A DNA stretch of 64,000 bases from NCBI GenBank assembly GCA_964499365.1, contig CAZCKU010000014.1:27136-91135 (forward strand), in the 5' to 3' direction. The position numbers were made by a program, and so were the translations under genes. The notes beneath the pieces were generated by a model, which saw only the letters and a list, made by a program, of their open reading frames with translations, made no database searches and was not told the origin of the DNA. Positions within the stretch are counted from its first letter, which is position 1; every line of letters starts with the position of its first letter. This document shows, one piece after another, positions 23,143 through 63,251 of the stretch. The stretch comes from an uncultured Thermodesulfovibrio sp. (GTDB lineage Bacteria > Nitrospirota > Thermodesulfovibrionia > Thermodesulfovibrionales > UBA6898).

Positions 23143-23252
23143 GAAATTAAGAAGTCTGCGTTAAAGATTTTTAATTGACCGCATGGGGCATGTCTTATGT
23201 ATTGGGCCGCTGGTGGGGACCGCTCATACAACAGATGACCCAGGAGGATAAA

Positions 23253-24275
23253 ATGGCAGAGGGATATTCGTTTACGGTCGACAAAAGGGCCAGGATCGTC
23301 TCCTGGGGTGAGCAGCTTGGTGAGATGATGGGAAAAACGGCTGCTGATACTGTCGGCAAGGCTTATCACAGGGTGTTTCCGCGGTTGCTGTCAGACGGGC
23401 AGGATGCCCTGTCGCTCTCCCTGTCCACCAACGAAAAAAGGCTCCTGAAGTCCTATTCCCTGAAATGTCCCTATGACTCGATGAAGGCCGATGTCCGGAT
23501 TGATCCGGTGGCGGAGACGAATAAGCGGTCCAAGGTCAGTGTGCGGGGCGCTGACGTATCCATATCCAATATTGTCTGCCCCGTGCTCCAGAACACCGGC
23601 AGCACCCAGCGCTTTAACGAGCTCGGCAAGATAGCGTCAACCCTCGCGCATGGCGTCCGGAACCCCTTAAACGCGATGAAGGGGGCGGTCCTGTATCTCG
23701 GCGAAAAATATCCGTCAGAACCTACTCTTGCGGAGTTTGCGGCGATCATGGAGGATGAGATACGGCGGTTCGACGGCTTTATTTCGCGGTTTCTGAGCAC
23801 CTCGGTCTCCGATATGGAATCGTCCCTGATCGACATCAATTCCCTGCTGAAAAAGATACAGATCCTGACTTCGTACCAGACCCGGTTTTACCATATCAGG
23901 AACGTGTATGAGCTGGGGGACATTCCGGCCGTCATGGCCAATGCCTTTCATCTCGAACATGCGATTCTGAACGTCATCAACAATGCCCTGGAGGTCATGC
24001 ACGGAGGGGGCAAGCTCACCGTAAAGACCGGTCTGGAACAGTGTTCCGACGGTGCGTATATCGTGATCGAGATCTCGGATACCGGGCCGGGGATATCTGC
24101 GACCCAAACGGGCCAATGCGTTGCGGCCGAAAAAAAGGGCCGGGGATTCGGCCTTCTGATAACCAGCGAATTATTGAGATGCTACGGCGGGAACCTTGAT
24201 ATCAAAGAGAAAAAAGGTAAGGGGACCGTCGCCAGACTTTATCTGTGTGCTGACAACCGTGGAGGTGCCTTATGA
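23253..24275 (+). CDS. soluble NtrB-like histidine kinase (PAS-like, HisKA, HATPase_c)
   Basis: Start moved to the ATG at 23253, behind AGGAGG (MAEGYSF...). H-box ASTLAHGVRNPLNAMKGA; N-box NVINNALEV; G-boxes DTGPGI and GRGFGL. Confidence 0.8.
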   Translation: MAEGYSFTVDKRARIVSWGEQLGEMMGKTAADTVGKAYHRVFPRLLSDGQDALSLSLSTNEKRLLKSYSLKCPYDSMKADVRIDPVAETNKRSKVSVRGADVSISNIVCPVLQNTGSTQRFNELGKIASTLAHGVRNPLNAMKGAVLYLGEKYPSEPTLAEFAAIMEDEIRRFDGFISRFLSTSVSDMESSLIDINSLLKKIQILTSYQTRFYHIRNVYELGDIPAVMANAFHLEHAILNVINNALEVMHGGGKLTVKTGLEQCSDGAYIVIEISDTGPGISATQTGQCVAAEKKGRGFGLLITSELLRCYGGNLDIKEKKGKGTVARLYLCADNRGGAL

Positions 24276-25687
24276 ACCGCAAGGGAGATATTCTGATCGT
24301 GGACGACCAGCCGAACGCCCTGAAAGTGCTGTCTGCGATACTTTCGGAGGAAGGGTATGACGTGCTTTTGTCCGAAAATGTCGACAAGGCCGAGCAGATG
24401 ATATATCAAAGACCGGTGGACGCGGTCATTACCGATATCATGATGCCGGGGAAGGACGGAATGCAGTTCTTCGATTATATCAACGCGCATCATCCGGATA
24501 TCCCGGTGATCTTTCTTACTGCCTACGGCACGGTCGAATCCGCGGTAGCGGCGATGACGCGCGGGGCCTTTCATTATTTCATGAAACCCCCGAATTATCA
24601 GACGCTCAAGAGCGTTGTTGCCAAGGCGGTGGAGCGGCGCGCCGTGAAAAGGGATGCCATACCCCGCAGCACGGCCGCCGGTACCGAGCGTCTGTCGCAT
24701 ATCATCGGCAAGACGCCGGAGATGCGCAAGCTTTACGAAACGATCGATGCCGTAAAGTGCTCGTCCAGCAACATCCATATCTGCGGAGAGACCGGGACAG
24801 GGAAGGAACTGGTTGCGCGGGCGGTCCATGACACCGGACACGCTGCCGGCAAGCCGTTCATCGCGGTCAATTGTGCGGCCATACCGCGGGAGCTGATCGA
24901 GGTGGAGCTGTTCGGGTGCGAAAAGGGCGCCTTTACCGGTGCGGTTGCCCGCAGGACCGGCAAGTTCGAGGAGGCCGCGGACGGGGTGATCTTCCTGGAC
25001 GAGATCGGTGAACTGGACCAGTCCATGCAGGCGAAGCTGCTGCGGGTGCTCCAGGAGCGCGAGATCGAGAGGATCGGCTGCAACAGGAAGATCAAGGTGG
25101 CGTTCAGACTCATTTCAGCCACCAACTGCGACCTGGCTGAAGAGGTGAAAAAGGGCCGCTTCAGGGAAGACCTCTATTACCGCATCAACGTGATCGAGAT
25201 TAAGGTGCCGCCGCTGCGGGACAGGAAAGACGATATCCCGCTGCTGGCCGATGCCTTTCTCAGGGAATTCTGCTCGCGTGAGCAGAAGAAGCTCGCCTTT
25301 TCTGCTGATGTCATCGAGGCGTTTCGGGAATATCCCTGGCCGGGGAATATTCGCCAGCTGAGAAATGTTATAGAGCGGGCAGTTGTACTGAATACCAGCG
25401 GGGGCATTACCCTGACGGACCTGCCGGGCGACTTTCATGTGAGCGCTCAGATCCATGACACGGTCGTTGCCTCGGGAAAGACGCTGCGGGAGGTGGAGAT
25501 GCAGGCGATCAGGCAGGCGCTCCTGGCGTGTAACGGCAATAAATCCAAGGCTGCCAAGCTACTGAAGATATCCCGGAAGGCACTCTACAAGAGACTCGAT
25601 GATGAGTTGCAGCTGACGCAGGCCGGTCATCCTGCGGACATTGAAGCGGTCGTCGATACTGTGTCGAAGAGAAACATGTGTTTCTGA
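24272..25687 (+). CDS. sigma-54-dependent response regulator (NtrC family: REC, AAA+, Fis-type HTH)
   Basis: ILIVDDQ...VITDIMMPG receiver; GETGTGKE Walker A; GAFTGA sigma-54 contact loop; C-terminal NKSKAAKLLKISRKALYKRL HTH. ATGA overlap with the kinase gene. Confidence 0.9.
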   Translation: MNRKGDILIVDDQPNALKVLSAILSEEGYDVLLSENVDKAEQMIYQRPVDAVITDIMMPGKDGMQFFDYINAHHPDIPVIFLTAYGTVESAVAAMTRGAFHYFMKPPNYQTLKSVVAKAVERRAVKRDAIPRSTAAGTERLSHIIGKTPEMRKLYETIDAVKCSSSNIHICGETGTGKELVARAVHDTGHAAGKPFIAVNCAAIPRELIEVELFGCEKGAFTGAVARRTGKFEEAADGVIFLDEIGELDQSMQAKLLRVLQEREIERIGCNRKIKVAFRLISATNCDLAEEVKKGRFREDLYYRINVIEIKVPPLRDRKDDIPLLADAFLREFCSREQKKLAFSADVIEAFREYPWPGNIRQLRNVIERAVVLNTSGGITLTDLPGDFHVSAQIHDTVVASGKTLREVEMQAIRQALLACNGNKSKAAKLLKISRKALYKRLDDELQLTQAGHPADIEAVVDTVSKRNMCF

Positions 25688-25929: not shown

Positions 25930-26427
25930 ATGATGAACTGGTACGCGGCATATGTGAAATCGAACCATGAGTTTGTGGTACATGCTGAGCTGGCGAGAAA
26001 GAGCATCGATACCTTTCTGCCGACCGTGAAAAAGGTGAGGCAGTGGAAAGACAGAAAAAAGTCGATCGACTTCCCGGTCTTTCCCGGATACCTCTTTGTC
26101 CAGGTAAACCCGTCGCCCGAAGATTTCCTGAGCGTGCTGAAGACCCGGGGAGTGATCAATCTCCTCTCGGCCCAGGCAGGCTACCCGACGCCGGTCTCCC
26201 CTGAAGAGATAGACGCGCTGAAACTCCTCGTGCAGAGCGGCACCGACTTTGATGTGTATCCGCATCTGAAAGAAGGGACACGGGTCAGGGTCAGGAAGGG
26301 GCCGCTTGAAGGCGCGGAGGGCGTGCTGGCCAGGAAGGACACGCAGTGTCTGTTCATGGTCAACGTGGAACTGCTGGGCAGGAGCATCGGGGTCAGCCTT
26401 TACGCCGATGCCCTTGAGGAAGTATAG
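25930..26427 (+). CDS. NusG-family paralog (RfaH/UpxY-like operon-specific antiterminator)
   Basis: NGN domain WYAAYVKSNHEFVVHAEL...FPGYLFV, plus KOW GTRVRVRKGPLEGAEGVL. Located at the head of a 37-kb co-directional polysaccharide locus. Confidence 0.8.
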   Translation: MMNWYAAYVKSNHEFVVHAELARKSIDTFLPTVKKVRQWKDRKKSIDFPVFPGYLFVQVNPSPEDFLSVLKTRGVINLLSAQAGYPTPVSPEEIDALKLLVQSGTDFDVYPHLKEGTRVRVRKGPLEGAEGVLARKDTQCLFMVNVELLGRSIGVSLYADALEEV

Positions 26428-27883: not shown

Positions 27884-29590
27884 ATGAAAGCGGAAGAAAC
27901 CGTTTCCCTGACGACCGACTCCGGCACGACGACGGGTCCAAAGGCAACCAGACGCCTCGGTCTCGCCGGCCTGGGGTTCTGGGGCAGGAACATCTTTCGC
28001 AATCTCAGCGGGATGGGGCTGCTCCGGACGGCCTGCGATTTCGATCCCGGTGTGATTACCGCATACAGCAGCAAGGCTGCAGTAATACCTGATGACGGGG
28101 GGACCACCCCTGCTGCCGTCAACTTCACCACCTCGTTCGATGAAATGCTTGGCGACCCGGCAATAGAGGCGCTGGTGATCGCCACGCCTGCGGTGACCCA
28201 TTACGAGCTGGTGAAAAAGACACTTGCCGCAGGGAAGGACGTCTTTGTCGAAAAACCCCTTGCCCTGACGGTTGCCGAAGGCGCTGAACTGGTTGCCCTG
28301 GCCGAAGGACTGCAGCGGGTCCTGATGGTCGGTCATATCCTCCAGTACCATCCCGCCGTGCTCAGGCTGAAGGAGCTGGTGCAGTCGGGCGAGATCGGAA
28401 AGATCCAGTATATCTATTCCAACCGTTTGAATATCGGCAGGTTCAGGACAGAGGAAAACATCCTCTGGAGTTTTGCACCGCACGACATCTCGGTCATCCT
28501 GATGCTGGTGGGAGAAGAGCCTGTCCACGTCTCGGCCAGCGGCGGTGATTACCTTAACAAGCAGGTCTACGACACCACGATGACGACACTCGAGTTCAGG
28601 GACGGCATGAAGGGACACGTATTTGTGAGCTGGCTCCACCCCTTCAAGGAGCAGAAACTGGTGATTGTCGGGTCGAAGGCCATGGTTGTTTTCGACGACG
28701 TCAGTGCTGAAAAGCTTTTCCTCTATCCCCATACGATCGAGTGGCAGAACGGGAGACTGCCGGTTGCGATGAAGGCAGAGTACCGGACCGTTCCGTACGA
28801 GACGGGAGAACCGTTGAGACGCGAACTCGAGCATTTTATGGACTGCATTGACCGGAGGCTGACACCCCGGACCGACGGCAGGGAAGGGCTTCGGGTACTG
28901 AGCGTCCTGCAGCGGGCGCAGCGCTCGATAGAAGACAGGCGGTCTCAGGCCGGTCAGGGTGCCCCCGATGTACCTCACGCACGGCAGGGCATTTACGGTG
29001 CTTCTCCTTCGGCCGCCATTCACGAAAGCGCGTACGTCGATGAGCAGGTTGCGATCGGCGAGGGCTCCAGGGTATGGCACTTTTCCCATATCCTCAGCGG
29101 CTCGGTCATCGGGAAAAACTGCACCATCGGCCAGAATGTCGTCATCGGACCCTCCAGCAGGCTGGGGGACCGGTGCAAGGTCCAGAACAACGTTTCGGTC
29201 TATAAAGGGGTGACGCTCGAGGATGATGTTTTTTGCGGACCGTCCTGTGTCTTTACGAATGTCTATAACCCCCGCGCGTTTATCGAGAGAAAGAATGAGT
29301 TCCGCAGCACCCTGGTGAAGAAAGGGGCAACGATCGGCGCCAATGCGACGGTCGTATGCGGCGTGACGATCGGCGAATACGCCCTGGTCGGGGCAGGCGC
29401 TGTCGTAAAGTCGGACGTACCTGCCCATGCCGTTGTCGCCGGTGTTCCGGCCCGGCAGATCGGGTGGGCCTGCAGATGCGGCACCACCCTGAAATTCCGC
29501 TCGGCAGACGCCACGTGCGACTACTGCGGCAACCACTATACGTTGACGGACAGGAATACCTTACTGCCCCGGGAGGGGGAATGCATATGA
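27884..29590 (+). CDS. fused Gfo/Idh/MocA oxidoreductase (WbpB-like) + hexapeptide N-acetyltransferase (WbpD-like)
   Basis: One uninterrupted 568-aa frame. Residues ~25-345 are a GFO_IDH_MocA fold (GLGFWGRN..., EKPLALT). After a ~25-aa linker comes [22 protein letters not shown]...[10 protein letters not shown]...[11 protein letters not shown], a WbpD-type left-handed beta-helix. Confidence 0.8.
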
Positions 29591-30831: not shown

Positions 30832-31995
30832 GTGAAGACAATCGTCGAGATACCGTTCCACAAACCATACATCACCGAAGATGAAATTGCCGAGGTCCTG
30901 GATTCGCTCAGGTCAGGCTGGCTGACCATGGGGCCCAAGACCGTCCGGTTTGAAGAGCAGTTCAGGGACTACCTGGGTGCCCCGCATGCGGTGTCGATGA
31001 ATTCATGCACCGCCGCCCTGCACCTTGCCCTGATGGCTGCCGGTATTCGGGAGGGCGACGAGGTGATACTCCCGGCGATGACCTTCACGGCAACGGCCGA
31101 GGTCGTTACCTATCTGAGGGCAAAACCGGTGCTTGCGGATGTGGACGTGGCCACCTGCAACATCGATGTGGCGGCAATAGAAGAAAAGATAACAGGGAAG
31201 ACCCGGGCGATCATCCCGGTCCATTTTGCGGGGCAGCCCTGCGATATGGATGAGATCTGCGGTCTGGCCGCCGAAAGAAACCTGACGGTCATCGAAGACG
31301 CCGCCCATGCGATCCCCGCACGCTATAAGGACAGAATGATCGGGACGATCGGAGACCTGACCTGCTTCAGTTTTTACGCCACCAAGTCCCTTACCACGGG
31401 TGAGGGCGGTATGGTCACCACGGCACGGGAAGAGTGGGCCGAACGGATGAGGATACTGCGGCTGCACGGCATATCCCGTGACGCCTGGAAGAGATATACC
31501 AGTGAGGGTACGTGGTACTACGAGGTCACGGAGGCCGGCTACAAATACAACATGACGGATCTCCAGGCGGCCCTCGGCATTGCGCAGCTCAGAAAGGTGG
31601 ACTGGATGTGGCAGAGACGGCAGCAAATCGCCGCCATCTATTCGGAAAAGTTCAGGGCCATTCCGGAAGTGCAGACCCCGGTGGTGAAGGCAGACAGGGA
31701 AAGCGGCTGGCACCTTTACGTCGTGAGGCTCCTGCCGGACACGCTGACGATAGACCGGAGCCGCTTCATCGAGGAACTGAAAAACATCGGGACGATGGCC
31801 TCGGTCCATTTTATCCCCCTCTACCGCCATCCGTATTACCGCGATGCCTTTCAGTATACCCCCCGCGGGTTCGCAGCATCGGAACAGATTTATGAGCAGA
31901 TCATCTCCCTGCCGATCTACCCCGGTATGGCTGATGACGATGCTGAACAGGTGGTTGATTCGGTCGCCCACGTGGTGAGGAAGTTCCGGAGATAG
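30832..31995 (+). CDS. DegT-family aminotransferase (PglE/WecE-like sugar 4-aminotransferase)
   Basis: IPFHKPYITEDEI...; the SFYATKSLTTGEGG PLP-lysine motif; GTG start. Confidence 0.8.
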   Translation: MKTIVEIPFHKPYITEDEIAEVLDSLRSGWLTMGPKTVRFEEQFRDYLGAPHAVSMNSCTAALHLALMAAGIREGDEVILPAMTFTATAEVVTYLRAKPVLADVDVATCNIDVAAIEEKITGKTRAIIPVHFAGQPCDMDEICGLAAERNLTVIEDAAHAIPARYKDRMIGTIGDLTCFSFYATKSLTTGEGGMVTTAREEWAERMRILRLHGISRDAWKRYTSEGTWYYEVTEAGYKYNMTDLQAALGIAQLRKVDWMWQRRQQIAAIYSEKFRAIPEVQTPVVKADRESGWHLYVVRLLPDTLTIDRSRFIEELKNIGTMASVHFIPLYRHPYYRDAFQYTPRGFAASEQIYEQIISLPIYPGMADDDAEQVVDSVAHVVRKFRR

Positions 31996-32000
31996 CGCAG

Positions 32001-32609
32001 ATGCTGAAGCGTCTTATGGACATCGTTCTGTCGTTCGCGGGCTTGATCGTCCTCCTGCCGGTCTTCGCGGTGACCGCGGTCCTGGTCAGGCGCGACAGTC
32101 CCGGCCCGGTTTTTTTCAGACAGGAGCGGATCGGCAGGGATTTCAGGCCTTTCATGATCTATAAATTCAGGACCATGACAAGCGGGGCAGAGGCCAGCGG
32201 AGCCCGGATCACCGTTGGCGGCGATGCGCGCATCACGCGAATCGGCCATCTGCTCAGGAGGACCAAGATTGATGAACTGCCGCAGCTGTTCAACGTGCTG
32301 AAGGGGGACATGAGCCTTGTGGGTCCCCGGCCTGAGGTCAGGGAATACGTCGAACTGTTCAAAACGGAATACGGGAAGCTGCTCAGGGTCCGGCCCGGGA
32401 TAACCGACCCTGCCTCCCTGCGCTATTCCGAAGAAGAAGCGGTCCTTTCCTCGGCAGATAACTGGCAGTCTGATTACACCAACAGGGTCCTGCCGGAGAA
32501 GATACGGCTGTCGCTGGGGTATGTGGAGAAACATGATATTGTCACCGATGTCGGCCTGATAGTGAGGACCATCTTCAAGATCGCGGATACGCGGGGTAAC
32601 ACACTATGA
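32001..32609 (+). CDS. small monotopic phosphoglycosyl transferase (PglC/WbaP-C-like initiating enzyme)
   Basis: KRLMDIVLSFAGLIVLLP...PGPVFFRQERIG...DELPQLFNVLKGDMSLVGPRP are the Bac_transf motifs. Confidence 0.85.
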   Translation: MLKRLMDIVLSFAGLIVLLPVFAVTAVLVRRDSPGPVFFRQERIGRDFRPFMIYKFRTMTSGAEASGARITVGGDARITRIGHLLRRTKIDELPQLFNVLKGDMSLVGPRPEVREYVELFKTEYGKLLRVRPGITDPASLRYSEEEAVLSSADNWQSDYTNRVLPEKIRLSLGYVEKHDIVTDVGLIVRTIFKIADTRGNTL

Positions 32610-32631
32610 AAGCAGAGGAGCCAGGAAAGCC

Positions 32632-34731
32632 ATGATCGGTATGCACAGCGGCATATATGAAACGCTCAAGGGCTGTATCATTAAATACCGGCAGACGTTT
32701 GTCACCGGGATATTCCTCATCCAGGTTGCGCTCGCAAACTACTGTGCCTTTATCCTCCGGTTCGACACGCTGCTGCCTGCGGCATATCTGGAGAAATTCC
32801 TGACGTACCTGCCGGTGCTTCTCCTTGTCCGCCTCTTCTTCCATTTCCTGCTCGGACTGCACCGGGGCCTCTGGCGCTACGCCAGCATCAGCGATATGAT
32901 CAAGATCGTCAATTCCGCCACTCTCGGCAGTATCGTATTCCTGGTGGCCGTGGACTATGTTGCCGGCGATCCGGCCTATCCTCATTCGATCTACATACTC
33001 GACTGGCTGCTGTTCATCATCATATCGGGAGCAACCAGGCTCCTGCTGAGGGTATTCAGGGAATATGCGCTGAGTGAGGCCTCCCGCAAGAATATCCTGA
33101 TCGTCGGGGCTGGGGACGCCGGCGAGCTGCTGGTGCGGGAAATGAAGCATAATCACGACAGCGACTATGAGCCGGTCGGCTTTATCGACGACGATCCACA
33201 GAAACAGGGACTCACCATACACGGGGTGCCGATCCTGGGGCAGTGCAGCATGCTCCCGGAGATCATCCGGAAGCATAAACCCGCAGAAATCCTTATCGCG
33301 GTATCGACCGATGCGCAGCAGATCATACAGAAGGTGTATGAAATATGCAAGCCGTTCAACCTGCCGATCAAAAAACTGCCGGGGATACACGATCTGCTTG
33401 ACGGGAACGTATCGGTGGCGACGAAGCTCGGCCAGCGCCTCGTGGAGGCCGGGCTTGTCTCTGAAGGCCAGATACAGGAGGCCCTCGACTCCCAGAAGAA
33501 GGAGGGCGGGAGGCTGGGGTCGATCCTGGTGCGGCTCGGCTATCTCACTGAGGAGAAATTCATTGAGTTCCTGAACAGACAGCAGGGTATTTCGCACATG
33601 AAACCGATCTCGCTGGTCGACCTGCTCCAGAGAGACCAGGTGAAAACGGACATTACCTCGGTCAGGAGCCTCATCGGCGGCAAATCAGTCATCGTGACCG
33701 GCGCCGGCGGCTCGATCGGTTCGGAACTCTGCCGGCAGATCATAAAATACAAGCCGTCCAGGCTGATATTGTTCGACCGGTATGAAAACAGCACCTTCGA
33801 GGTGGACAACGAATTGAAGGCCCTGGGCCATGATGATACAATACTCACCACGATCATCGGCGACATTCAGGATATCCAGCACCTGGAGCAGACCTTTCTC
33901 CGCTATAAACCGCAGATCGTCTTTCACGCTGCGGCGTATAAACATGTGCCCCTTATGGAACACAATCCGGTCGAGGCGATCAAAAACAACGTCTTCGGCA
34001 CGAAAAACGTGATTGACGCCGCATCGCGCCACTGCTCGGAGAGTTTTGTGCTGATCTCGACGGACAAGGCGGTCAATCCCTCCAGTATTATGGGTGCCAC
34101 CAAGCGTATCGCCGAATTTCTGACGGTCAATATGAATTCCTTCTGCGGTACAAAATTTACGACGGTACGCTTTGGAAACGTGCTCGGGACGAACGGAAGC
34201 GTTGTGCCGATTTTCAAGGAACAGGTGAAAAAGGGTGGTCCGGTGACGGTTACCCATCCCGAGGTGAAGAGATTCTTCATGCTGATTCCCGAGGCCGTCC
34301 AACTGGTGCTGATCGCGGCCGCGTCGGGCCGGGGCGGCGAGATATTCGTTCTCGACATGGGCAGTCCCATCAAGATCATCGACCTGGCTGAAAACTTTAT
34401 CCGGCTTTCGGGGTTTATTCCGCATCAGGAGATCAAGATCAAATATACCGGACTGCGGCCCGGAGAAAAACTCTACGAAGACCTCTTTGATGAAACAGAG
34501 ATCATGGTCCCGACGAACCACAAGAAACTCATGACTGCACTGCCCAGTGTCCCATCCTCTGTCGTCCTCCACGGTCATCTCGCCGCGCTGGAGGAGATCG
34601 TCCGCAACTATGCCGCTGAAGACATTGTTCCGAAGATGCGGGACATATTGCCGAGCTTCAGGGGCGGTTTCCCGGATGTCCCCGGCGTTGAAGGAGTGGC
34701 TGAAATAATCATGCAATCAGGGAAACTGTAA
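32632..34731 (+). CDS. membrane-anchored UDP-GlcNAc 4,6-dehydratase (PglF/WbpM/CapD family) with an inserted MshEN-type domain
   Basis: Four N-terminal TM helices; Rossmann-like linker ILIVGAGDAGE; catalytic SDR VIVTGAGGSIGSEL...AAAYKHVPLME...STDKAV. An extra ~60-aa segment sits between the linker and catalytic domains. Confidence 0.85.
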   Translation: MIGMHSGIYETLKGCIIKYRQTFVTGIFLIQVALANYCAFILRFDTLLPAAYLEKFLTYLPVLLLVRLFFHFLLGLHRGLWRYASISDMIKIVNSATLGSIVFLVAVDYVAGDPAYPHSIYILDWLLFIIISGATRLLLRVFREYALSEASRKNILIVGAGDAGELLVREMKHNHDSDYEPVGFIDDDPQKQGLTIHGVPILGQCSMLPEIIRKHKPAEILIAVSTDAQQIIQKVYEICKPFNLPIKKLPGIHDLLDGNVSVATKLGQRLVEAGLVSEGQIQEALDSQKKEGGRLGSILVRLGYLTEEKFIEFLNRQQGISHMKPISLVDLLQRDQVKTDITSVRSLIGGKSVIVTGAGGSIGSELCRQIIKYKPSRLILFDRYENSTFEVDNELKALGHDDTILTTIIGDIQDIQHLEQTFLRYKPQIVFHAAAYKHVPLMEHNPVEAIKNNVFGTKNVIDAASRHCSESFVLISTDKAVNPSSIMGATKRIAEFLTVNMNSFCGTKFTTVRFGNVLGTNGSVVPIFKEQVKKGGPVTVTHPEVKRFFMLIPEAVQLVLIAAASGRGGEIFVLDMGSPIKIIDLAENFIRLSGFIPHQEIKIKYTGLRPGEKLYEDLFDETEIMVPTNHKKLMTALPSVPSSVVLHGHLAALEEIVRNYAAEDIVPKMRDILPSFRGGFPDVPGVEGVAEIIMQSGKL
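33424..33582 (+). other. tandem 24-residue MshEN c-di-GMP-binding motifs inside the dehydratase
   Basis: KLGQRLVEAGLVSEGQIQEALDSQ, then KKEGG, then RLGSILVRLGYLTEEKFIEFLNRQ. Both halves fit RLGxx(L/V/I)(L/V/I)xxG(L/V/I)(L/V/I)xxxxLxxxLxxQ and are separated by a 5-residue spacer. Confidence 0.75.
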
Positions 34732-34801: not shown

Positions 34802-35179
34802 ATGTCTGCCGAAAGCTCAGAACGAAGAGAATATTTCAGGTTTGATCTCGCGAATGTCGTTGAGCTGGTTGCTGCTGATGCGGCCTCGTCCGACCAGTTC
34901 AGGGGTGTGACGATCAATATCAGTGAGACCGGCATGAGCCTTTTTGTCTTTCAGCCGATACGCACCAACGACAGGATCTCGATCGTCAAGAGCATGCTGC
35001 CGCTCTGTCATAGGGCAGGCCGCGTGCGGTGGGTGAACAGGCTGGCAACAGACTTTTATAAGATCGGCCTGATGTTTGACCCGGAGGACGTCCAGGCCTC
35101 CGCGGCGTCACCGGGTGAGAACCGGACCGCGCACGTGCTGTATGCCCCCGGCCGGAAGGACCCGTCGGAGGAGGTTTAA
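34802..35179 (+). CDS. stand-alone PilZ domain protein (c-di-GMP receptor)
   Basis: RREYFR (RxxxR) and NISETG (D/NxSxxG) motifs with typical spacing. 125 aa. Confidence 0.75.
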   Translation: MSAESSERREYFRFDLANVVELVAADAASSDQFRGVTINISETGMSLFVFQPIRTNDRISIVKSMLPLCHRAGRVRWVNRLATDFYKIGLMFDPEDVQASAASPGENRTAHVLYAPGRKDPSEEV

Positions 35180-36550
35180 GTGAGCCGGCTAACCTCAAAC
35201 AGCAAGGGACGAATACTCATTGTCGACGATGAGCCGGCCGGCACCTGCGTCCTCTCCGCGATTCTGGCGGAGGAGGGGTACGACGTCATGACCTCGGACA
35301 ATGCGGACTATGCCGGCAGGGTAGTCAGGCATGAAGACCTTGACGCGGTGATTACCGACCTCAAGGTGCCCGGCAGCGACGGGATGCGCTTTTTTGATTA
35401 TATCTGCGAGGCCAAGCCGGATATCCCGGTCGTCTTCCTGACCGCCTGCGGTACGATTGAATCAGCAGTCGCCGCGATGTCGCGCGGGGCCTTCTATTAT
35501 TTTGTCAAGCCTCCGGACTATGAAAAGTTGAAGGGAATCCTCGCGCGGGCGGTCGAAAAACGCCGTTTGAAAAGGGAGATCGATCTTCTGAAGAGCAGGC
35601 TTGCCAACGAAGCAAATGGCTATGCCATTGTCGGCAACACCCCGGAACTGCGGCGGATCCTGGAGACGGTCGATGCGGTGAAGGACTCGATGAGCACGGT
35701 CCTCATCAGCGGCGAGACCGGTACCGGGAAAGAGCTTATTGCGCGTACGCTGCACTACCGGAGCATGAAGAGTACCCTGCCTTTTATCACGGTCAACTGC
35801 GCCGCCATACCCAGGGAGCTTGTGGCAGTGGAGCTCTTCGGGTGTGAGAAGGGTGCCTTTGCAGGAGCCACGGCCCGGAGGACCGGCAAGTTTGAGGAAG
35901 CGGCGAACGGGGTGGTATTTTTCGATGAGATCAGCGAACTGGAGCTCCCGGTGCAGGAGAAACTGCTCCATGTCCTCGAAACCATGGAGATTGAACGACT
36001 GGGAGGCAGCAGGAAGATCAGGGTGGCCTTCAGGCTCATATCCGCCACGAACCGCGACCTGCTCGCAGAAGTACGGAAGGGCCGCTTCAGGGAGGACCTC
36101 TATTCCCGCATCGCCATGGTTGAGATCCCGGTGCCCCCGCTTCGCCACAGAGCAGACGATATACTGCTGCTGGCGACCGCCTTCCTGAGCGAGTGCTGTG
36201 CCCGGAACGGGAGGCTGGTGACGCTCTCGGGCGAGGTGCTGAAGACCCTGCAACTCTATCATTGGCCCGGGAACATCCGCGAACTCAAGAACGTCATCGA
36301 GCGTGCGTTTATCCTCGCCAAGGGAGGACAGATCGGCTTCCGGGAACTGCCTGCGGAGATCCTGTCGATGAGAAAACAGCCGGCACAGAACGGTTCGACC
36401 CGGACGCTCAAGGAACTGGAAATTCATGCGATCAGGGAGACGCTCCATAAGTGCAGGGGAAACAAATCCAAGACCGCCAAAATACTCGGTATTTCGCGAA
36501 AGGCCTTTTATAAGCGCCTTCGGGAAGCCGATCATCCTGAAGCTCTCTGA
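35180..36550 (+). CDS. sigma-54-dependent response regulator, paralog of 24272..25687, with a GAFAGA loop variant
   Basis: GTG start immediately after the PilZ stop, with a GGAGGAGG RBS inside the PilZ 3' end. REC (VITDLKVPG); GETGTGKE; GAFAGA at 35852-35869; HTH NKSKTAKILGISRKAFYKRL. Confidence 0.9.
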   Translation: MSRLTSNSKGRILIVDDEPAGTCVLSAILAEEGYDVMTSDNADYAGRVVRHEDLDAVITDLKVPGSDGMRFFDYICEAKPDIPVVFLTACGTIESAVAAMSRGAFYYFVKPPDYEKLKGILARAVEKRRLKREIDLLKSRLANEANGYAIVGNTPELRRILETVDAVKDSMSTVLISGETGTGKELIARTLHYRSMKSTLPFITVNCAAIPRELVAVELFGCEKGAFAGATARRTGKFEEAANGVVFFDEISELELPVQEKLLHVLETMEIERLGGSRKIRVAFRLISATNRDLLAEVRKGRFREDLYSRIAMVEIPVPPLRHRADDILLLATAFLSECCARNGRLVTLSGEVLKTLQLYHWPGNIRELKNVIERAFILAKGGQIGFRELPAEILSMRKQPAQNGSTRTLKELEIHAIRETLHKCRGNKSKTAKILGISRKAFYKRLREADHPEAL

Positions 36551-50333: not shown

Positions 50334-53300
50334 ATGAAAAACCAGCGGGTACCAGGATTGATAGCGTTCTTTATCGTATTGATGTGTCTCTTTAGCTGTC
50401 CGTCGGGAGTGCCCGCACAGACCGAGGGGTGTCCATCCGGAATCAGTCATTATTGGAAACTCGACGGCAGCAGTTCGCCCTATGCGGACTTCTATGGCGC
50501 CAATGCGGCTGTATGCACAAATTGCCCGGCAGCGACCATCGGCATCATCAATGGTGCACAGCAGTTCAGTGCAGAGAGCCTTCTGAGTGTCGTCGATGAT
50601 GATTCGTTCGACTGGGGTCTCAACGACAGTTTCTCTATTGAATTCTGGATGAACAGTGGTTCGTGCACCACGACGCAGGTAATGGTCGGCAGAAATGACG
50701 GCGGCAGCCCCCTGCTCTGGTATGCAGCCTGCACTGCCGGCAAGGTCGAGGTCTATTTCAGCGATGCAGCCGGAAATATCAGCGAGGCAACGGGTACAAC
50801 GGATATCGCAAATGGCAGCTGGAACCATATCGTTGCGGTGATGGATACGGCAACGAATGAGCTGCGTGTGTATGTAAACGGCGCAATCGAGCAGTCCGTG
50901 GCCACCTCCTTCAGCGGAGGCTTCGGTTCCTCGGCCCCGCTGAATATCGGCTGGATTAATCTCGCGGACGGCTATCATTTCTCAGGAATGCTGGATGAAG
51001 TTTCACTGTATAACAGGGTGCTGTCAGAGAGCGAGATCCGGCAGCATCACCGCGACGGCTCTATTGGCCTGGGCTGGGGCTATTGCGGCTGTGCCAGCCC
51101 TGCGAGGATCATGCCTCTGGGCGACTCGATCACCTACGGTGAGCCTCCGGACGATCCCATACTGGTTGCCGGCTATCGCAAGCCCCTGTATCAGACACTC
51201 TTTAATTCCGGCTATTCCTTTGACTTTGTGGGAAGCCTGCAGCACGGAGACAGTGCATTGTTTGATATTGACCATGAGGGCCACGGCGGCTGGGGGGCCA
51301 AGGCAGACAGGGGCTACGGCGGCGGCATTGCTCCCACGGTGCAGCAGTTCCTGACCGACCATCCCGCCGATGTGGTGCTGCTCCATATCGGCACGAACGA
51401 TATATCTGACGGCACGCAGAACGTCAACGACATAGCCGAAATACTCGACAACATCGACTTGATCAGCGAAAACATCGTGGTCGTCCTTGGACTGATCATC
51501 AACCGTACCGACGGGACCGATAAGGTCCTCGCAACGACGCAGTTCAATGATGACGTCGAAGCGATGGCAACGTCCCGCATTGCAGCCGGAGACCGGATCA
51601 TCATCGTCGACCATGAGACCGCCCTGAACTATGCCATGGACCTCGACGGCACGCTCCATCCGAATGCTGCGGGATATGCAAAGATGGCAGATGTCTGGAG
51701 TCAGGCACTGTCTGATATTCTGCCGCTGTGCGGCGAGACACCTCCCCTTATTGTCTCGGCCGCCAATACAGCAGCGTATGACGAATGGCCTTATTTCTAC
51801 GACGTTGCTGCCACGGGGTTCCCCTCTCCCACGTTTAGCCTTGTGACCGCGCCTTCGACCATGACGATAAATTCCAGTACAGGCCTGATTTCATGGATAC
51901 CCTCCAGCACCGGCAACTACAATGTCGCGGTCAAGGCCTCAAACACGCAGGGGGAATTTACGCAAAACTTCACGATACAGGTCGGAGACCCCTGGGCCTG
52001 TTCCTCGGAGATGATGTCTCATTACTGGAAGTTCGGTGAGGCAGCAGGACCAACCTATGAGGACGTGTTCGGCTTCAGCGATGCCACCTGCACCAATTGC
52101 CCGACCGCGGCAGAAGGTGTTGTCGGCGGCGGTCAGCAGTTCGATTCGGCGACCGAGCTGGGCGCAGACCTTGGTACTACGGCGAATTGGGGAGTTAACG
52201 ACAGTTTTTCGGTCGAGTTCTGGCTGAAGACCGCTGACTGCTCAGGAACGCAGGTCCTGGCCGGAAGAAATGACAGTTCGACCTCGCTGCACTGGTACGT
52301 AGCCTGCTCCGGGGGCAACATGGAGATATACCTGCGCGACACCGGGGGTGTCAGCAGCGATGTGGTCGGCATAAGAAATATTGCGGATGATACCTGGCAC
52401 CACGTTGCCGCGGTGAGAGATGCCGCAACAAAGGAGCTGAGCATATACGTTGACGGGAAGAGAGAGAACTCTATCAGAACGTCCTTCAAAAACGGATTCA
52501 CTTCAACGGTGCCATTCAATATCGGCTGGATTGATATGTCGCACGGCTATCACTTTGCCGGAGTCCTCGACGCCCTGGCCCTGTATAACAAGGCCCTGTC
52601 GGACGAGGAAATTCTGCAGCACTATCATAACGGGACGATCGGCACCGGGTACTGCAACGAGTATTCTTATGTAACACCGTCGGTCGGCTCCAACGGCAGC
52701 ATCAGCCCGGCGACAAAACAGAAGGTGAAGTACAGCAGGACCATAGCCTTCACCGTAACGCCGAACAACGGGTACCATATAAACTCTGTGACAGGCTGCA
52801 ACGGCACGCTTGTCGATAACACCTATACCACGGGTCCGATTACCGCTGACTGCAACGTCATCGCAACCTTTGCGTACGGGTCGGCAACAAATATCGTGAC
52901 ACCGTCGGCAGGAGCCAACGGCAACATCAGCCCGAACTCCCCGCAGACGATCGATTATGGCGAGACGACTGCCTTTACCGTCACCCCTGATACCGGGTAT
53001 CATGTTGTAGCTGTCACGGGTTGCGGGGGAACGCTCGTTGGAGACACCTACACCACAGGCCCGATAATCGCAGACTGCGGCGTATCGGCAAGCTTTGCGA
53101 TCAATACCTACACCGTGACGCCGTCGGCAGGAGCCAACGGCAGCATCAGCCCGGACACCCCGCAGACGGTCAACTACAACGACACCATATCCTTTACCGT
53201 AACTCCGGCTGCAGGCAGTCACCTTGTATCTGTCACGGGCTGCAGCGGTACGCTGGATGGAGATACCTACACAACCGCTCCTGTGACGGACGATTGTGCT

Positions 53301-53588
53301 GTTGCCGCGACCTTCGAGGTTAACGGGACCGTAAAGAGGGTGTCAGGAGCTGCAGTTTCCTTCTTCTCTTCCCTGCAGGCGGCATACAATGTCGCGTCGA
53401 GCGGTGACAGCATTCAGAGCCAGGAGACGACCCTGACGGAGAGCATTGATTTCGCCTTCGAAAGAGTGGTGACGGTGCAGGGAGGCTATGATCAGGAATT
53501 TTCAATTCAAAGCGGTCCAACGACGGTCTCCGGCACGCTGACGATCAGCAGCGGGACTGTGGTACTGGATAATCTGGCAGTCCAGTAA
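50334..53588 (+). CDS. secreted multidomain protein: LamG, SGNH/GDSL esterase, Ig-like, LamG, 3x B-repeat, C-terminal domain
   Basis: Signal peptide. Two paralogous LamG modules (SHYWKLDG... and SHYWKFGE...). SGNH blocks: LGDSITYG, HEGHGGW, GTNDI, D..LHPN. Three tandem ~72-75-aa repeats. Confidence 0.75.
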   Translation: MKNQRVPGLIAFFIVLMCLFSCPSGVPAQTEGCPSGISHYWKLDGSSSPYADFYGANAAVCTNCPAATIGIINGAQQFSAESLLSVVDDDSFDWGLNDSFSIEFWMNSGSCTTTQVMVGRNDGGSPLLWYAACTAGKVEVYFSDAAGNISEATGTTDIANGSWNHIVAVMDTATNELRVYVNGAIEQSVATSFSGGFGSSAPLNIGWINLADGYHFSGMLDEVSLYNRVLSESEIRQHHRDGSIGLGWGYCGCASPARIMPLGDSITYGEPPDDPILVAGYRKPLYQTLFNSGYSFDFVGSLQHGDSALFDIDHEGHGGWGAKADRGYGGGIAPTVQQFLTDHPADVVLLHIGTNDISDGTQNVNDIAEILDNIDLISENIVVVLGLIINRTDGTDKVLATTQFNDDVEAMATSRIAAGDRIIIVDHETALNYAMDLDGTLHPNAAGYAKMADVWSQALSDILPLCGETPPLIVSAANTAAYDEWPYFYDVAATGFPSPTFSLVTAPSTMTINSSTGLISWIPSSTGNYNVAVKASNTQGEFTQNFTIQVGDPWACSSEMMSHYWKFGEAAGPTYEDVFGFSDATCTNCPTAAEGVVGGGQQFDSATELGADLGTTANWGVNDSFSVEFWLKTADCSGTQVLAGRNDSSTSLHWYVACSGGNMEIYLRDTGGVSSDVVGIRNIADDTWHHVAAVRDAATKELSIYVDGKRENSIRTSFKNGFTSTVPFNIGWIDMSHGYHFAGVLDALALYNKALSDEEILQHYHNGTIGTGYCNEYSYVTPSVGSNGSISPATKQKVKYSRTIAFTVTPNNGYHINSVTGCNGTLVDNTYTTGPITADCNVIATFAYGSATNIVTPSAGANGNISPNSPQTIDYGETTAFTVTPDTGYHVVAVTGCGGTLVGDTYTTGPIIADCGVSASFAINTYTVTPSAGANGSISPDTPQTVNYNDTISFTVTPAAGSHLVSVTGCSGTLDGDTYTTAPVTDDCAVAATFEVNGTVKRVSGAAVSFFSSLQAAYNVASSGDSIQSQETTLTESIDFAFERVVTVQGGYDQEFSIQSGPTTVSGTLTISSGTVVLDNLAVQ
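52668..53320 (+). repeat. three tandem coding repeats (~72-75 aa each) inside the LamG/SGNH protein
   Basis: Units begin VTPSVGSNGSISP, VTPSAGANGNISP and VTPSAGANGSISP. Each ends ...YTTGPI.ADC.V.A.F, like divergent InlB B-repeat modules. Confidence 0.8.
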
Positions 53589-61835: not shown

Positions 61836-63251
61836 ATGAAAGGGGCTGCAGTCATGGCAACAGGTGATAGAATGCATGCGCTGGTCGCCGGCCTGAGAGG
61901 TTTTATCCTGAACCGCCTGCGACTGCCTGAAGTCGCGCTGCCGCCTGCGGCAGTGTGGGGCGGTATCAGCGCCTGCTTCGTCCTGGTCATAGCCCTGGCG
62001 ATCGGCAATGCGAAGCCGGTATATCTTGCCCTCCTGCTGGTGCCTCTCTTCATATACCTTTCTATTGCACGGCCATTTCTGTTTCCCTTCGGGGCCTATG
62101 CCTTCTTTATACCGTTCGATCAGCTCCTGTCGCTGGGAGAGCCCGGCGGGATGACGCTCACCAAACTTCTCGGCATCGCAATTATTCCGGTACTTTTTTT
62201 CAAAGGGTCGCTCGAAAACAGACTGAAGGCTCCCGAGCCGATCATATTCCTGTGGGTCGTGCTTGTGTTTTACGGCGTTATTTCGGCCTTGTGGGCGATC
62301 CAGCCGGCAGTTGCGGTTGGCAGGATACCGACCGCGGTCGGCCTGATACTCGTCTATATCATGGCAGCGACCTACAAGGTCCAGAAGAGCGAACTCGATA
62401 TGCTCGGCTGGTGCATCCTCTGCGGAGGCATCCTTGCGGCGATACTGACGATCTATAACTTCAGGTCATTGGGATCAGCAGCGCGGGCGACGGTGCAGAT
62501 CGGGGAGAGGACGGCGCTGCTGAACCAGCTGGCTTTCGACCTCCTGCTGCCTGTTTCCGTATGCCTCCAGAAGGTGCTGTCGGGCAGGCGGCTGGTGGGG
62601 AAGGCCCTGTTTGGTCTGTTCCTCGCCATAGTGATCTTCGCGATCATCGTTACCGGATCCAGGGGGGCCCTTGCAGGACTCGGGGCACTTTTCAGTGTGT
62701 ATCTTCTGTCGTCGAAGAAAAAGATATCGATACTGACGATCCTGCTGGTGATCGGCATCGTGGTGGCCGTCACGACCCCTGTCTTCTTTCTTGAGAGACT
62801 CGAGGAATCGGTCGAGAAGGGCGGTGCCGGGAGGACGACGATCTGGATGAACGGATTAAAGGCCCTCGATCGATACTGGCTCACCGGTGCGGGTCTGAAC
62901 AATTTTCCCGAGGCCTACCGGGAGGTCGCGTACTTTACTCCGTATTCCCTGGGGCTCGGAAGGGCATCTCACAACCTGTACCTCGGTATTTTTGTGGAGT
63001 TGGGCATTGCCGGGTTTATGCTGATGCTCTGGGGGATGCTCAAACACTACCGCTCGATAAAGCCGCGGCTGGCCTCTGCCGACAGCAGCCAGGTCATGCT
63101 GAAAGCTGCCCTCATCGGTATGCTCGTCTCAAGCATATTCCTGGACACCTTCTGGTATAAATCTCTGTGGCTGCTCTGGATGATGATCATCATGTATAAA
63201 AACGTACTGTTTATTCGGCGGGATGATGCAGCAGCTGCCCGCTATCGGTGA
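61836..63251 (+). CDS. O-antigen ligase/polymerase-like membrane protein (Wzy_C domain)
   Basis: About 10-12 TM helices. GSRGALAGL and the RASHNLYLGIFVELGIAGF motif are typical of the Wzy_C family. Start uncertain. Confidence 0.7.
   Translation: MKGAAVMATGDRMHALVAGLRGFILNRLRLPEVALPPAAVWGGISACFVLVIALAIGNAKPVYLALLLVPLFIYLSIARPFLFPFGAYAFFIPFDQLLSLGEPGGMTLTKLLGIAIIPVLFFKGSLENRLKAPEPIIFLWVVLVFYGVISALWAIQPAVAVGRIPTAVGLILVYIMAATYKVQKSELDMLGWCILCGGILAAILTIYNFRSLGSAARATVQIGERTALLNQLAFDLLLPVSVCLQKVLSGRRLVGKALFGLFLAIVIFAIIVTGSRGALAGLGALFSVYLLSSKKKISILTILLVIGIVVAVTTPVFFLERLEESVEKGGAGRTTIWMNGLKALDRYWLTGAGLNNFPEAYREVAYFTPYSLGLGRASHNLYLGIFVELGIAGFMLMLWGMLKHYRSIKPRLASADSSQVMLKAALIGMLVSSIFLDTFWYKSLWLLWMMIIMYKNVLFIRRDDAAAARYR

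Follow-up and report, generated by a model that had tools for sequence, protein, structure and literature searches.

A predicted cyclic di-GMP-sensing MshEN_N module inserted into a PglF/WbpM-type sugar dehydratase of Thermodesulfovibrionia

The 64-kb stretch of DNA from an uncultured Thermodesulfovibrio species that we analyzed as a whole, hereafter referred to as the window, carries a large glycan locus, within which lies an open reading frame (ORF) of 699 residues that is 100% identical to a protein in the public data (P0001). Its product is a membrane-bound nucleoside diphosphate (NDP)-sugar 4,6-dehydratase that contains a 58-residue insertion between its Rossmann-like linker domain (CoA_binding_3; PF13727 match at aa 81-240, E 1.8e-15) and its catalytic short-chain dehydrogenase/reductase (SDR) domain (Polysacc_synt_2, aa 353-636). 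The inserted segment is a bona fide MshEN_N module, the kind of domain by which the ATPase MshE of Vibrio cholerae binds the second messenger cyclic di-GMP (c-di-GMP). The features of the gene and its immediate neighbors are compiled in Table 1.

Translation of positions 33424-33582 (+) yields KLGQRLVEAGLVSEGQIQEALDSQKKEGGRLGSILVRLGYLTEEKFIEFLNRQ, which corresponds to aa 265-317 of the ORF and exactly reproduces the peptide quoted in a first-pass annotation of this DNA. The published MshEN consensus, RLGxx(L/V/I)(L/V/I)xxG(L/V/I)(L/V/I)xxxxLxxxLxxQ, occurs in two 24-residue copies separated by a five-residue spacer (Wang et al., 2016). As direct reading confirmed, the peptide departs from it only at the four positions listed previously, with K for R at position 1 and I for L at position 17 of motif I, and with Y and F at the hydrophobic positions 11 and 17 of motif II, while the spacer, KKEGG, has the same length as in MshE. 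A relaxed version of the 24-residue pattern gave no second match anywhere in the six-frame translation of the window. A minus-strand ORF that overlaps the dehydratase gene (32575-33597) is without support.

Table 1. Features of the dehydratase gene and its immediate neighbors (positions within the window; aa, amino acid residues)
Feature	Position (strand)	Basis or description
MshEN_N-bearing dehydratase gene, whole	32632..34731 (+)	699-aa ORF; membrane-bound PglF/WbpM-type NDP-sugar 4,6-dehydratase
N-terminal membrane region, aa 20-147	32689..33072 (+)	AlphaFold2 (AF2): four long helices, 20-43, 50-73, 86-110, 118-147
Rossmann-like linker domain (CoA_binding_3), aa ~153-248	33088..33375 (+)	AF2: strands and helices alternate at 153-248
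58-aa insertion, aa 263-320	33418..33591 (+)	MAFFT alignment to insert-less relatives
MshEN motif I, K265-Q288, 24 aa	33424..33495 (+)	Translation, hidden Markov model (HMM), phmmer
Spacer KKEGG, aa 289-293, 5 residues	33496..33510 (+)	Translation
MshEN motif II, R294-Q317, 24 aa	33511..33582 (+)	Translation, HMM, phmmer
Catalytic SDR domain, aa 353-636	33688..34539 (+)	Polysacc_synt_2 (PF02719), E 1e-117
Catalytic T477-D478-K479 and M487	34060..34092 (+)	Alignment to PglF 5BJU
Small monotopic phosphoglycosyltransferase (PGT; Bac_transf, PglC-like), 202 aa	32001..32609 (+)	Upstream partner; PF02397, E 4e-59
DegT-family sugar 4-aminotransferase	30832..31995 (+)	Upstream partner; PF01041, E 1e-135
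PilZ-domain protein, 125 aa, RxxxR (R9-R13) and NISETG	34802..35179 (+)	PF07238, E 4e-9
Sigma-54-dependent response regulator (REC-AAA+-HTH_8)	35180..36550 (+)	Downstream neighbor

The assignment of the insert to the MshEN_N family is supported by profile, sequence and structure comparisons, having withstood every computational test able to refute it. The NCBIfam model NF053729 ('cyclic di-GMP-binding domain-containing protein, MshE-related'; cutoff 38 bits) covers the segment with all of its 53 positions (1-53/53), scoring 68.5 bits (E 3e-19) in the context of the whole dehydratase. In phmmer comparisons against PDB sequences, the insert aligns to residues 8-63 of V. cholerae MshE (5HTL; E 3e-11) and also to the GSPII domains of Thermus thermophilus PilF. 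Structure prediction points in the same direction: an AF2 model based on an alignment of 84 homologous sequences, which also underlies the conservation values given below, folds the insert into four helices in a short-long-short-long arrangement (266-272, 278-291, 295-301, 307-317). The best PDB match of a model of the insert alone is again 5HTL ('MshE with cdg'), at a root-mean-square deviation of 1.4-1.7 Å over 53-59 columns and 44-47% identity (Foldseek probability 1.0, with a weak E of 7e-3 for this short domain), followed in rank by c-di-GMP-bound GSPII-B structures; the confidence of this insert-only model is moderate (predicted local distance difference test score, pLDDT, 67.7).

The Pfam model named 'MshEN', PF05157, gives no match to the dehydratase even at E≤10. 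The first-pass annotation had proposed that the lack of a T2SSE_N match would refute the domain assignment, but this criterion is invalid: in a genuine MshEN ATPase, the PilB-like protein encoded at L038:5983-7839 that served as a positive control, PF05157 maps to aa 72-158, downstream of the 53-residue motif at aa 19-74. The current PF05157 thus represents only the α/β MshEN_C (T2SSE_N1) subdomain and not the c-di-GMP motif, and the missing match is uninformative because MshEN_C is absent from the dehydratase, whose insert comprises only 58 residues. The likeness to the N-domain of MshE that had been suggested therefore holds for the MshEN_N part (NF053729, 5HTL) and does not extend to MshEN_C. 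The insert is an MshEN_N domain alone, an arrangement already known from EpsG, Bd2402 and others (PMC5013675 Suppl. Table 4). Weak matches of the insert to FumaraseC_C, DUF4388 and DUF2949 are Pfam shadows, seen again on each of the MshEN_N-containing proteins examined. The models for TIGR03029 and NfrB also match the dehydratase locally, and in the NfrB models only the MshEN part aligns.

The host protein is a PglF/WbpM-type membrane-bound NDP-N-acetylhexosamine 4,6-dehydratase, in agreement with its initial placement in the PglF/CapD group. Its catalytic domain aligns to Campylobacter jejuni PglF (5BJU) with an E of 4e-84, starting at aa 325, directly after the insert, and Foldseek superimposes the AF2 model on PglF with template modeling (TM) scores of 0.93-0.94 and 43-44% identity. 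Residues T477, D478, K479 and M487 correspond to T395, D396, K397 and M405 of PglF, whose roles were taken from the titles of PDB variant entries, and are invariant in the 84 homologs; the NAD site (GxxGxxG), which reads TGAGGSIGSE, is invariant as well. Like PglF and WbpM, the dehydratase is further predicted by AF2 to have an N-terminal region with multiple transmembrane segments and a Rossmann-like domain, and local matches to TIGR03025/03023 show a resemblance of this membrane region to the N-terminal parts of large polyprenyl-phosphate sugar transferases. The degree of identity to PglF, together with the neighboring DegT and PGT genes, leads us to infer UDP-N-acetylglucosamine (UDP-GlcNAc) as the putative substrate, with a retaining 4,6-dehydration product. 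The dehydratase reaches no NCBIfam equivalog cutoff (PseB, 206 bits versus a cutoff of 408). Moreover, it has no match to Glyco_tranf_2, the domain of family 2 glycosyltransferases (GT2), and since it lacks this catalytic domain, it is an analogue of the MshEN-containing glycosyltransferase NfrB and not a member of that group.

To what extent NF053729 informs on ligand binding can be judged from domains of measured behavior (affinities from PMC11731258 and PMC5013675). V. cholerae MshE (VcMshE; binder, 0.5 µM) scores 86.7 bits, PilF GSPII-B (binder, 6 nM) 63.4 bits, GSPII-C (binder, 460 nM) 62.1 bits and GSPII-A, a non-binder, 55.6 bits, with the excised insert, a predicted binder, at 74.9 bits. 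A match to this model alone is no proof of binding, because the non-binding GSPII-A also lies above the cutoff, so that inspection at the residue level matters. The ligand contacts of VcMshE (R9, L10, G11, G18, L25, L29, Q32, R38, L39, G40, G47, L54, L58, Q61) correspond to K265, L266, G267, G274, I281, L285, Q288, R294, L295, G296, G303, F310, L314 and Q317 in the dehydratase. Eight positions are lost in the non-binding protein XpsE (G11, I19, L29, R38, G40, L54, L58, Q61; PMC5013675), and all of them are retained or conservatively replaced in the insert. A lysine at motif position 1 is likewise found in GSPII-B (K167), the 6 nM binder (PMC11731258), and motif II, degenerate in GSPII-A, is intact. 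The MshEN_C subdomain is dispensable for binding, since the isolated VcMshEN_N(1-62) fragment binds c-di-GMP at 0.35 µM (PMC5013675).

Conservation among the homologs follows the same residues. In motif I, position 265 is always basic (K/R, 100%), with G267 at 100%, L285 at 98% and Q288 at 100%; the spacer retains E291 (96%), G292 (100%) and G293 (99%), and motif II retains R294 (90% R, 10% K), L295 (88%), G296 (100%), G303 (96%), L314 (99%) and, less strictly, Q317 (62%). The entropy of the insert (1.06 bits) lies between the values for the Rossmann-like domain (1.24) and the SDR domain (0.77). This pattern indicates that the insert is under purifying selection and that its surface-exposed ligand-contact positions are among the residues selected for. 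Judged from its sequence, the insert is likely to bind c-di-GMP.

An alignment of the dehydratase to seven relatives that lack the insert (P0146, P0125, P0133, P0137, P0221, P0182 and P0135) shows a single clean 58-column gap at aa 263-320, which, together with the Pfam placement, bears out the earlier description of an extra segment between the Rossmann-like and SDR domains. The junction reads …DGNVSV[58 aa]SHMKPISLVDLLQRD in the dehydratase versus …DGKVSV-SQIKPLSLEDLLQRE in the insert-less relatives. Outside the insert, the insert-less proteins P0125 and P0146 are 60% and 54% identical to the dehydratase, compared with 60% and 58% for P0112 and P0122, the most divergent insert-bearing homologs. 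In the AF2 model, the insert is preceded by a low-confidence tether (aa 253-264, pLDDT <50). The N-termini of PilB/MshE-like ATPases (~600 aa) from Nitrospirota genomes share as much as 66% identity with the insert over 56 residues, as against 44-47% for Vibrio MshE, and this closer relationship suggests that the insert arose by domain shuffling within the phylum Nitrospirota.

The fusion is no singleton but a conserved architecture of a Nitrospirota clade. The module is gap-free, and its spacer devoid of indels, in all of the 120 best full-length homologs (59-100% identity, ~690 aa); a strict regular-expression survey that flagged 13 of these 120 proteins was an artefact of its rigid residue classes. 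Among 1.84 billion representatives clustered at 50% identity, only about five clusters match the insert and both of its flanks, with the remaining matches confined to one of the two parts, MshEN or SDR, and a scan of GTDB species-representative genomes identified ~39 loci with the full fusion. The possibility that CapD/PglF homologs carry the segment ubiquitously and without motif conservation, raised at the outset as a reason to discard the idea, is ruled out: the canonical enzymes and even close relatives do not have the insert, and the contact residues are conserved in those that do. In the source data, these proteins go under 'polysaccharide biosynthesis protein', 'FlaA1/EpsC-like NDP-sugar epimerase' or similar names, none of which mentions c-di-GMP; they are annotated in this way because the Pfam MshEN model omits the binding motif.

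The fusion loci are labeled Nitrospirota/Thermodesulfovibrionia, under current or older names, with one exception, located at L030:5248-7338 on a 315-kb contig (JALDRB010000003.1) of a 'Candidatus Scalindua sp.' bin. This locus has a GC content of 39.7%, is without the usual DegT and PGT neighbors and may either have reached an anammox planctomycete by horizontal transfer or lie on a contig that was mis-binned. A further MshEN_N domain resides within a forkhead-associated (FHA)-domain protein (L058:5356-6360; module at aa 220-273), which is truncated by a contig end and derives from the same metagenome-assembled genome (MAG) as the fusion locus L022. It is 65% identical to the dehydratase insert, and its architecture does not appear in the 2016 MshEN table.

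The glycan locus in the window starts with a histidine kinase, a σ54 response regulator, a NusG paralog and an NDP-sugar dehydrogenase, followed by a WbpB-like/WbpD-like fused protein, two DegT aminotransferases, the 202-aa PGT, the MshEN-dehydratase and the PilZ-domain protein. A second σ54 response regulator and a PAS-REC protein come next, then an NDP-hexose branch (nucleotidyltransferase, SDR, C-methyltransferase, 3,5-epimerase) and, at the end, an ABC-2 transporter pair, glycosyltransferases and a Wzy_C/O-glycosylation-ligase-like protein. For the DegT protein next to the PGT, the nearest NCBIfam models are PseC and ArnB, both under their equivalog cutoffs. The gene order DegT - PGT - dehydratase - (σ54 response regulator) - nucleotidyltransferase is conserved across fusion-bearing genomes, with the PGT adjoining the dehydratase in most loci and a homolog of the σ54 response regulator lying 3' of it in ~17/39. 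In several cases, PGT and dehydratase are even encoded in one ORF with the architecture PGT-TM-Rossmann-MshEN_N-SDR, where TM denotes the transmembrane region (L036:4552-7335, L047:4504-7320 and L037:861-3668; P0122, 897 aa; P0050, 935 aa). This conserved synteny and the single-ORF fusions support the notion that the dehydratase supplies the sugar for the initiating transferase, and the natural fusions argue for a physical PGT-dehydratase unit.

The PilZ gene is located 70 nt downstream of the dehydratase gene and abuts the gene for the σ54 response regulator, such that two types of c-di-GMP receptor, MshEN_N and PilZ, are adjacent in the window. Its RxxxR and NxSxxG motifs are canonical, and it recurs in an 88%-identical relative (L082) and is absent from the loci of other species. 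Owing to this canonical PilZ gene directly downstream, c-di-GMP signaling touches the locus in the lineage of the window.

Several other features of the glycan locus deserve mention. The two σ54 response regulators (23175-25687 (+) and 35180-36550 (+)) flank the glycan operon, the upstream one with an adjoining histidine kinase, and the NusG paralog (25930-26427) lies at its head. In a single 568-aa ORF (27884-29590 (+)), a GFO_IDH_MocA oxidoreductase is fused to a hexapeptide acetyltransferase (WbpB-like and WbpD-like); with the adjoining NDP-sugar dehydrogenase and DegT genes, it suggests a 2,3-diacetamido-uronic acid branch, and this unit recurs in several related loci. The cluster also encodes a 1084-aa protein (50334-53588 (+)) with two Laminin_G_3/ConA-like domains, a GDSL lipase/acylhydrolase, an Ig-like He_PIG domain and a Flg_new_2 repeat. 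The Wzy_C-domain protein (61836-63251 (+)) weakly matches an exosortase-associated putative O-glycosylation ligase (TIGR03097), and lipid A-core or proteins could be the acceptors of the glycan.

The best overall explanation for these observations, and in our judgment a reasonably probable one, is that the inserted MshEN_N module acts as a c-di-GMP sensor controlling the dehydratase and, with it, glycan flux. The inner-membrane dehydratase, the adjacent 4-aminotransferase and the PglC-like PGT would make the first sugar of an undecaprenyl-phosphate-linked glycan and load it onto the carrier. The module interrupts the flexible linker that joins the catalytic domain to the membrane-proximal Rossmann-like domain. 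There, c-di-GMP binding could rigidify or order the four-helix bundle of the module and thereby alter the way in which the catalytic domain is positioned with respect to the membrane domain, the dimer partner or the PGT, so that flux through the glycan pathway would increase at high c-di-GMP levels. More specifically, c-di-GMP bound to MshEN_N may gate the first committed, cytoplasmic step at the nucleotide-sugar level, either allosterically or through the coupling of the dehydratase to the fused or adjacent PGT, a proposal for which we see about an even chance. The allosteric mechanism and the activating direction are more speculative and argued from MshE and from NfrB, a precedent for the MshEN-mediated activation of a polysaccharide enzyme (PMC8669469).

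A number of observations weigh against such a role. NF053729 does not separate binders from non-binders, as illustrated by the 55.6 bits of GSPII-A. The residue equivalent to G18 of VcMshE (aa 274, 33451-33453), at which Gly-to-Leu/Ile changes in the loop lower binding in VcMshE (PMC5013675), is Asn in 50% and K/R/S in ~20% of the family; in the protein of the window it is Gly, and Asn also occupies this position in the PilB sequences of Myxococcus xanthus and 5zfr in the phmmer alignment. The equivalent of Q61 is Gln in just 62% of the homologs, and the Asp108 contact contributed by MshEN_C is missing from the insert. AF2 models the insert with moderate confidence (pLDDT about 70-79) and its N-terminal tether as disordered, and the model contains no confident interdomain contact that would define a specific allosteric path. 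Moreover, no GGDEF, EAL or HD-GYP genes are present within the 64-kb window, and every carrier of the fusion is an uncultured MAG.

The disordered tether and the lack of a confident contact with the catalytic domain make a scaffold or recruitment role a serious rival, although we consider it rather unlikely. The module would then bind c-di-GMP as a docking device that joins the dehydratase to the PGT, to the neighboring PilZ protein or to a specific diguanylate cyclase, or it might localize or sequester c-di-GMP at the site of glycan assembly. Such a function would fit the tight coupling to the PGT evident from adjacency and single-ORF fusions, the neighboring PilZ gene and the finding that the MshEN glycosyltransferase NfrB directly contacts its dedicated cyclase DgcJ (PMC8669469). 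However, the PilZ neighbor is limited to close relatives of the window, and the insert borders the catalytic domain on its N-terminal side (crystallized PglF corresponds to aa 325 onward), a location well suited for a conformational effect. A PilZ:MshEN complex analogous to Xanthomonas PilB-PilZ was set aside except as a minor possibility, because the interface in that precedent lies on ND1/MshEN_C, which is missing here, and the PilZ gene is lineage-restricted.

Less likely than recruitment, and in our view improbable, is a degenerate or purely structural MshEN_N domain that, like those of XpsE/GspE and GSPII-A, does not bind nucleotides and serves as a spacer or oligomerization element. The existence of non-binding MshEN domains, with GSPII-A above the NF053729 cutoff and XpsE as a further case, and the replacement of the loop glycine by Asn in half of the family and by K/R/S in others are in line with this idea. 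Yet, the protein of the window has the loop glycine and satisfies every consensus position, its motif II is intact, and its NF053729 score exceeds those of both verified PilF binders. In addition, fold stability alone does not account for the 100% conservation of the polar, exposed contacts K/R265, Q288 and R/K294. Also less likely than recruitment, and indeed most improbable, is the sensing of another cyclic dinucleotide, such as 3'3'-cyclic GMP-AMP (cGAMP), or another ligand: VcMshEN does bind cGAMP, but more weakly than c-di-GMP, and it excludes c-di-AMP (PMC5013675), the guanine-specificity residues of VcMshE are conserved in the insert, and no evidence of a cGAMP synthase was seen within the window.

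We rate the novelty of the fusion as one of architecture and control point and not of principle, because both of its parts are well known and MshEN is a promiscuous module that also occurs in polysaccharide enzymes. The table in the founding MshEN paper (PMC5013675) lists combinations with ATPase, GT2, REC, HD-GYP, CheA, CheX, kinase, AAA_31, peptidase M23 and TrxB domains, and none with a dehydratase, epimerase or Polysacc_synt_2 domain. Full-text literature searches for MshEN or c-di-GMP in combination with a dehydratase, PglF, WbpM, CapD or nucleotide sugars yielded no relevant paper, in keeping with the earlier statement that no described MshEN-dehydratase fusion was known, with the proviso that their coverage was incomplete and absence is no proof. 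If the proposed sensor function holds true, the dehydratase would be the first nucleotide-sugar tailoring enzyme under the direct control of a second messenger, with the sensor of a type IV pilus ATPase shuffled into a glycan pathway. The control point would lie upstream of all known c-di-GMP-gated synthases, and the switch would act at the entry of the undecaprenyl phosphate-dependent pathway, at the commitment of UDP-GlcNAc, thereby sparing precursor as well as lipid carrier. For the Thermodesulfovibrionia, a class that is little studied and for the most part uncultured, the dehydratase would, in addition, be a defined c-di-GMP effector. The annotation of these proteins further exposes a blind spot of the databases, as architecture surveys based on PF05157 miss effectors that contain MshEN_N only. 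The soluble enzyme part and the existence of natural insert-less relatives make the hypothesis testable in vitro.

The known cases of direct c-di-GMP control over polysaccharides involve polymerases, co-polymerases and glycosyltransferases (BcsA, Alg44, PelD, PgaCD, NfrB). BcsA, Alg44, PelD and PgaCD, which rely on PilZ or degenerate GGDEF domains, and Caulobacter HfsJ adjust exopolysaccharide output directly at the protein level, acting at the polymerization or glycosyltransfer step through receptor folds other than MshEN. To our knowledge, none of these five systems is a nucleotide-sugar tailoring enzyme. With V. cholerae MshE (5HTL) and the GSPII domains of PilB/PilF, the dehydratase insert shares the tandem 24+5+24 motif and the four-helix MshEN_N fold. 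In MshE and PilB, however, the module is N-terminal, followed by MshEN_C and the T2SSE ATPase domain, and regulates pilus assembly or secretion, whereas in the dehydratase MshEN_N stands alone and in an internal position within a sugar-modifying enzyme.

Among polysaccharide enzymes, Escherichia coli NfrB likewise represents a fusion of MshEN to a membrane-bound protein subject to post-translational control by c-di-GMP (PMC8669469). NfrB is a polymerizing GT2 glycosyltransferase with a C-terminal MshEN domain and functions as a c-di-GMP-activated exopolysaccharide synthase, whereas the dehydratase has no GT2 domain, carries its module as an insertion and not at a terminus, and is a nucleotide-sugar enzyme that precedes any lipid-linked step. 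The EpsG-type chain-length-determinant tyrosine kinase of Methylobacillus (MshEN_N-AAA_31) also combines MshEN_N alone with a protein of a polysaccharide pathway (PMC5013675 Suppl. Table 4), but its module is N-terminal and its control is exerted at polymerization and export, as opposed to the predicted control of precursor synthesis in the dehydratase. The closest counterparts of the host enzyme, C. jejuni PglF, Pseudomonas aeruginosa WbpM and Staphylococcus aureus CapD, have the same four transmembrane helices followed by CoA_binding_3 and Polysacc_synt_2 domains, the same catalytic Thr-Asp-Lys and a Met that replaces the SDR Tyr, and the same partners, a DegT aminotransferase and an initiating PGT. 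What distinguishes the clade represented in the window is that 58 extra residues, which carry the MshEN_N module, lie at the site of the ~3-residue linker of these canonical proteins (…V-SQI-KP…).

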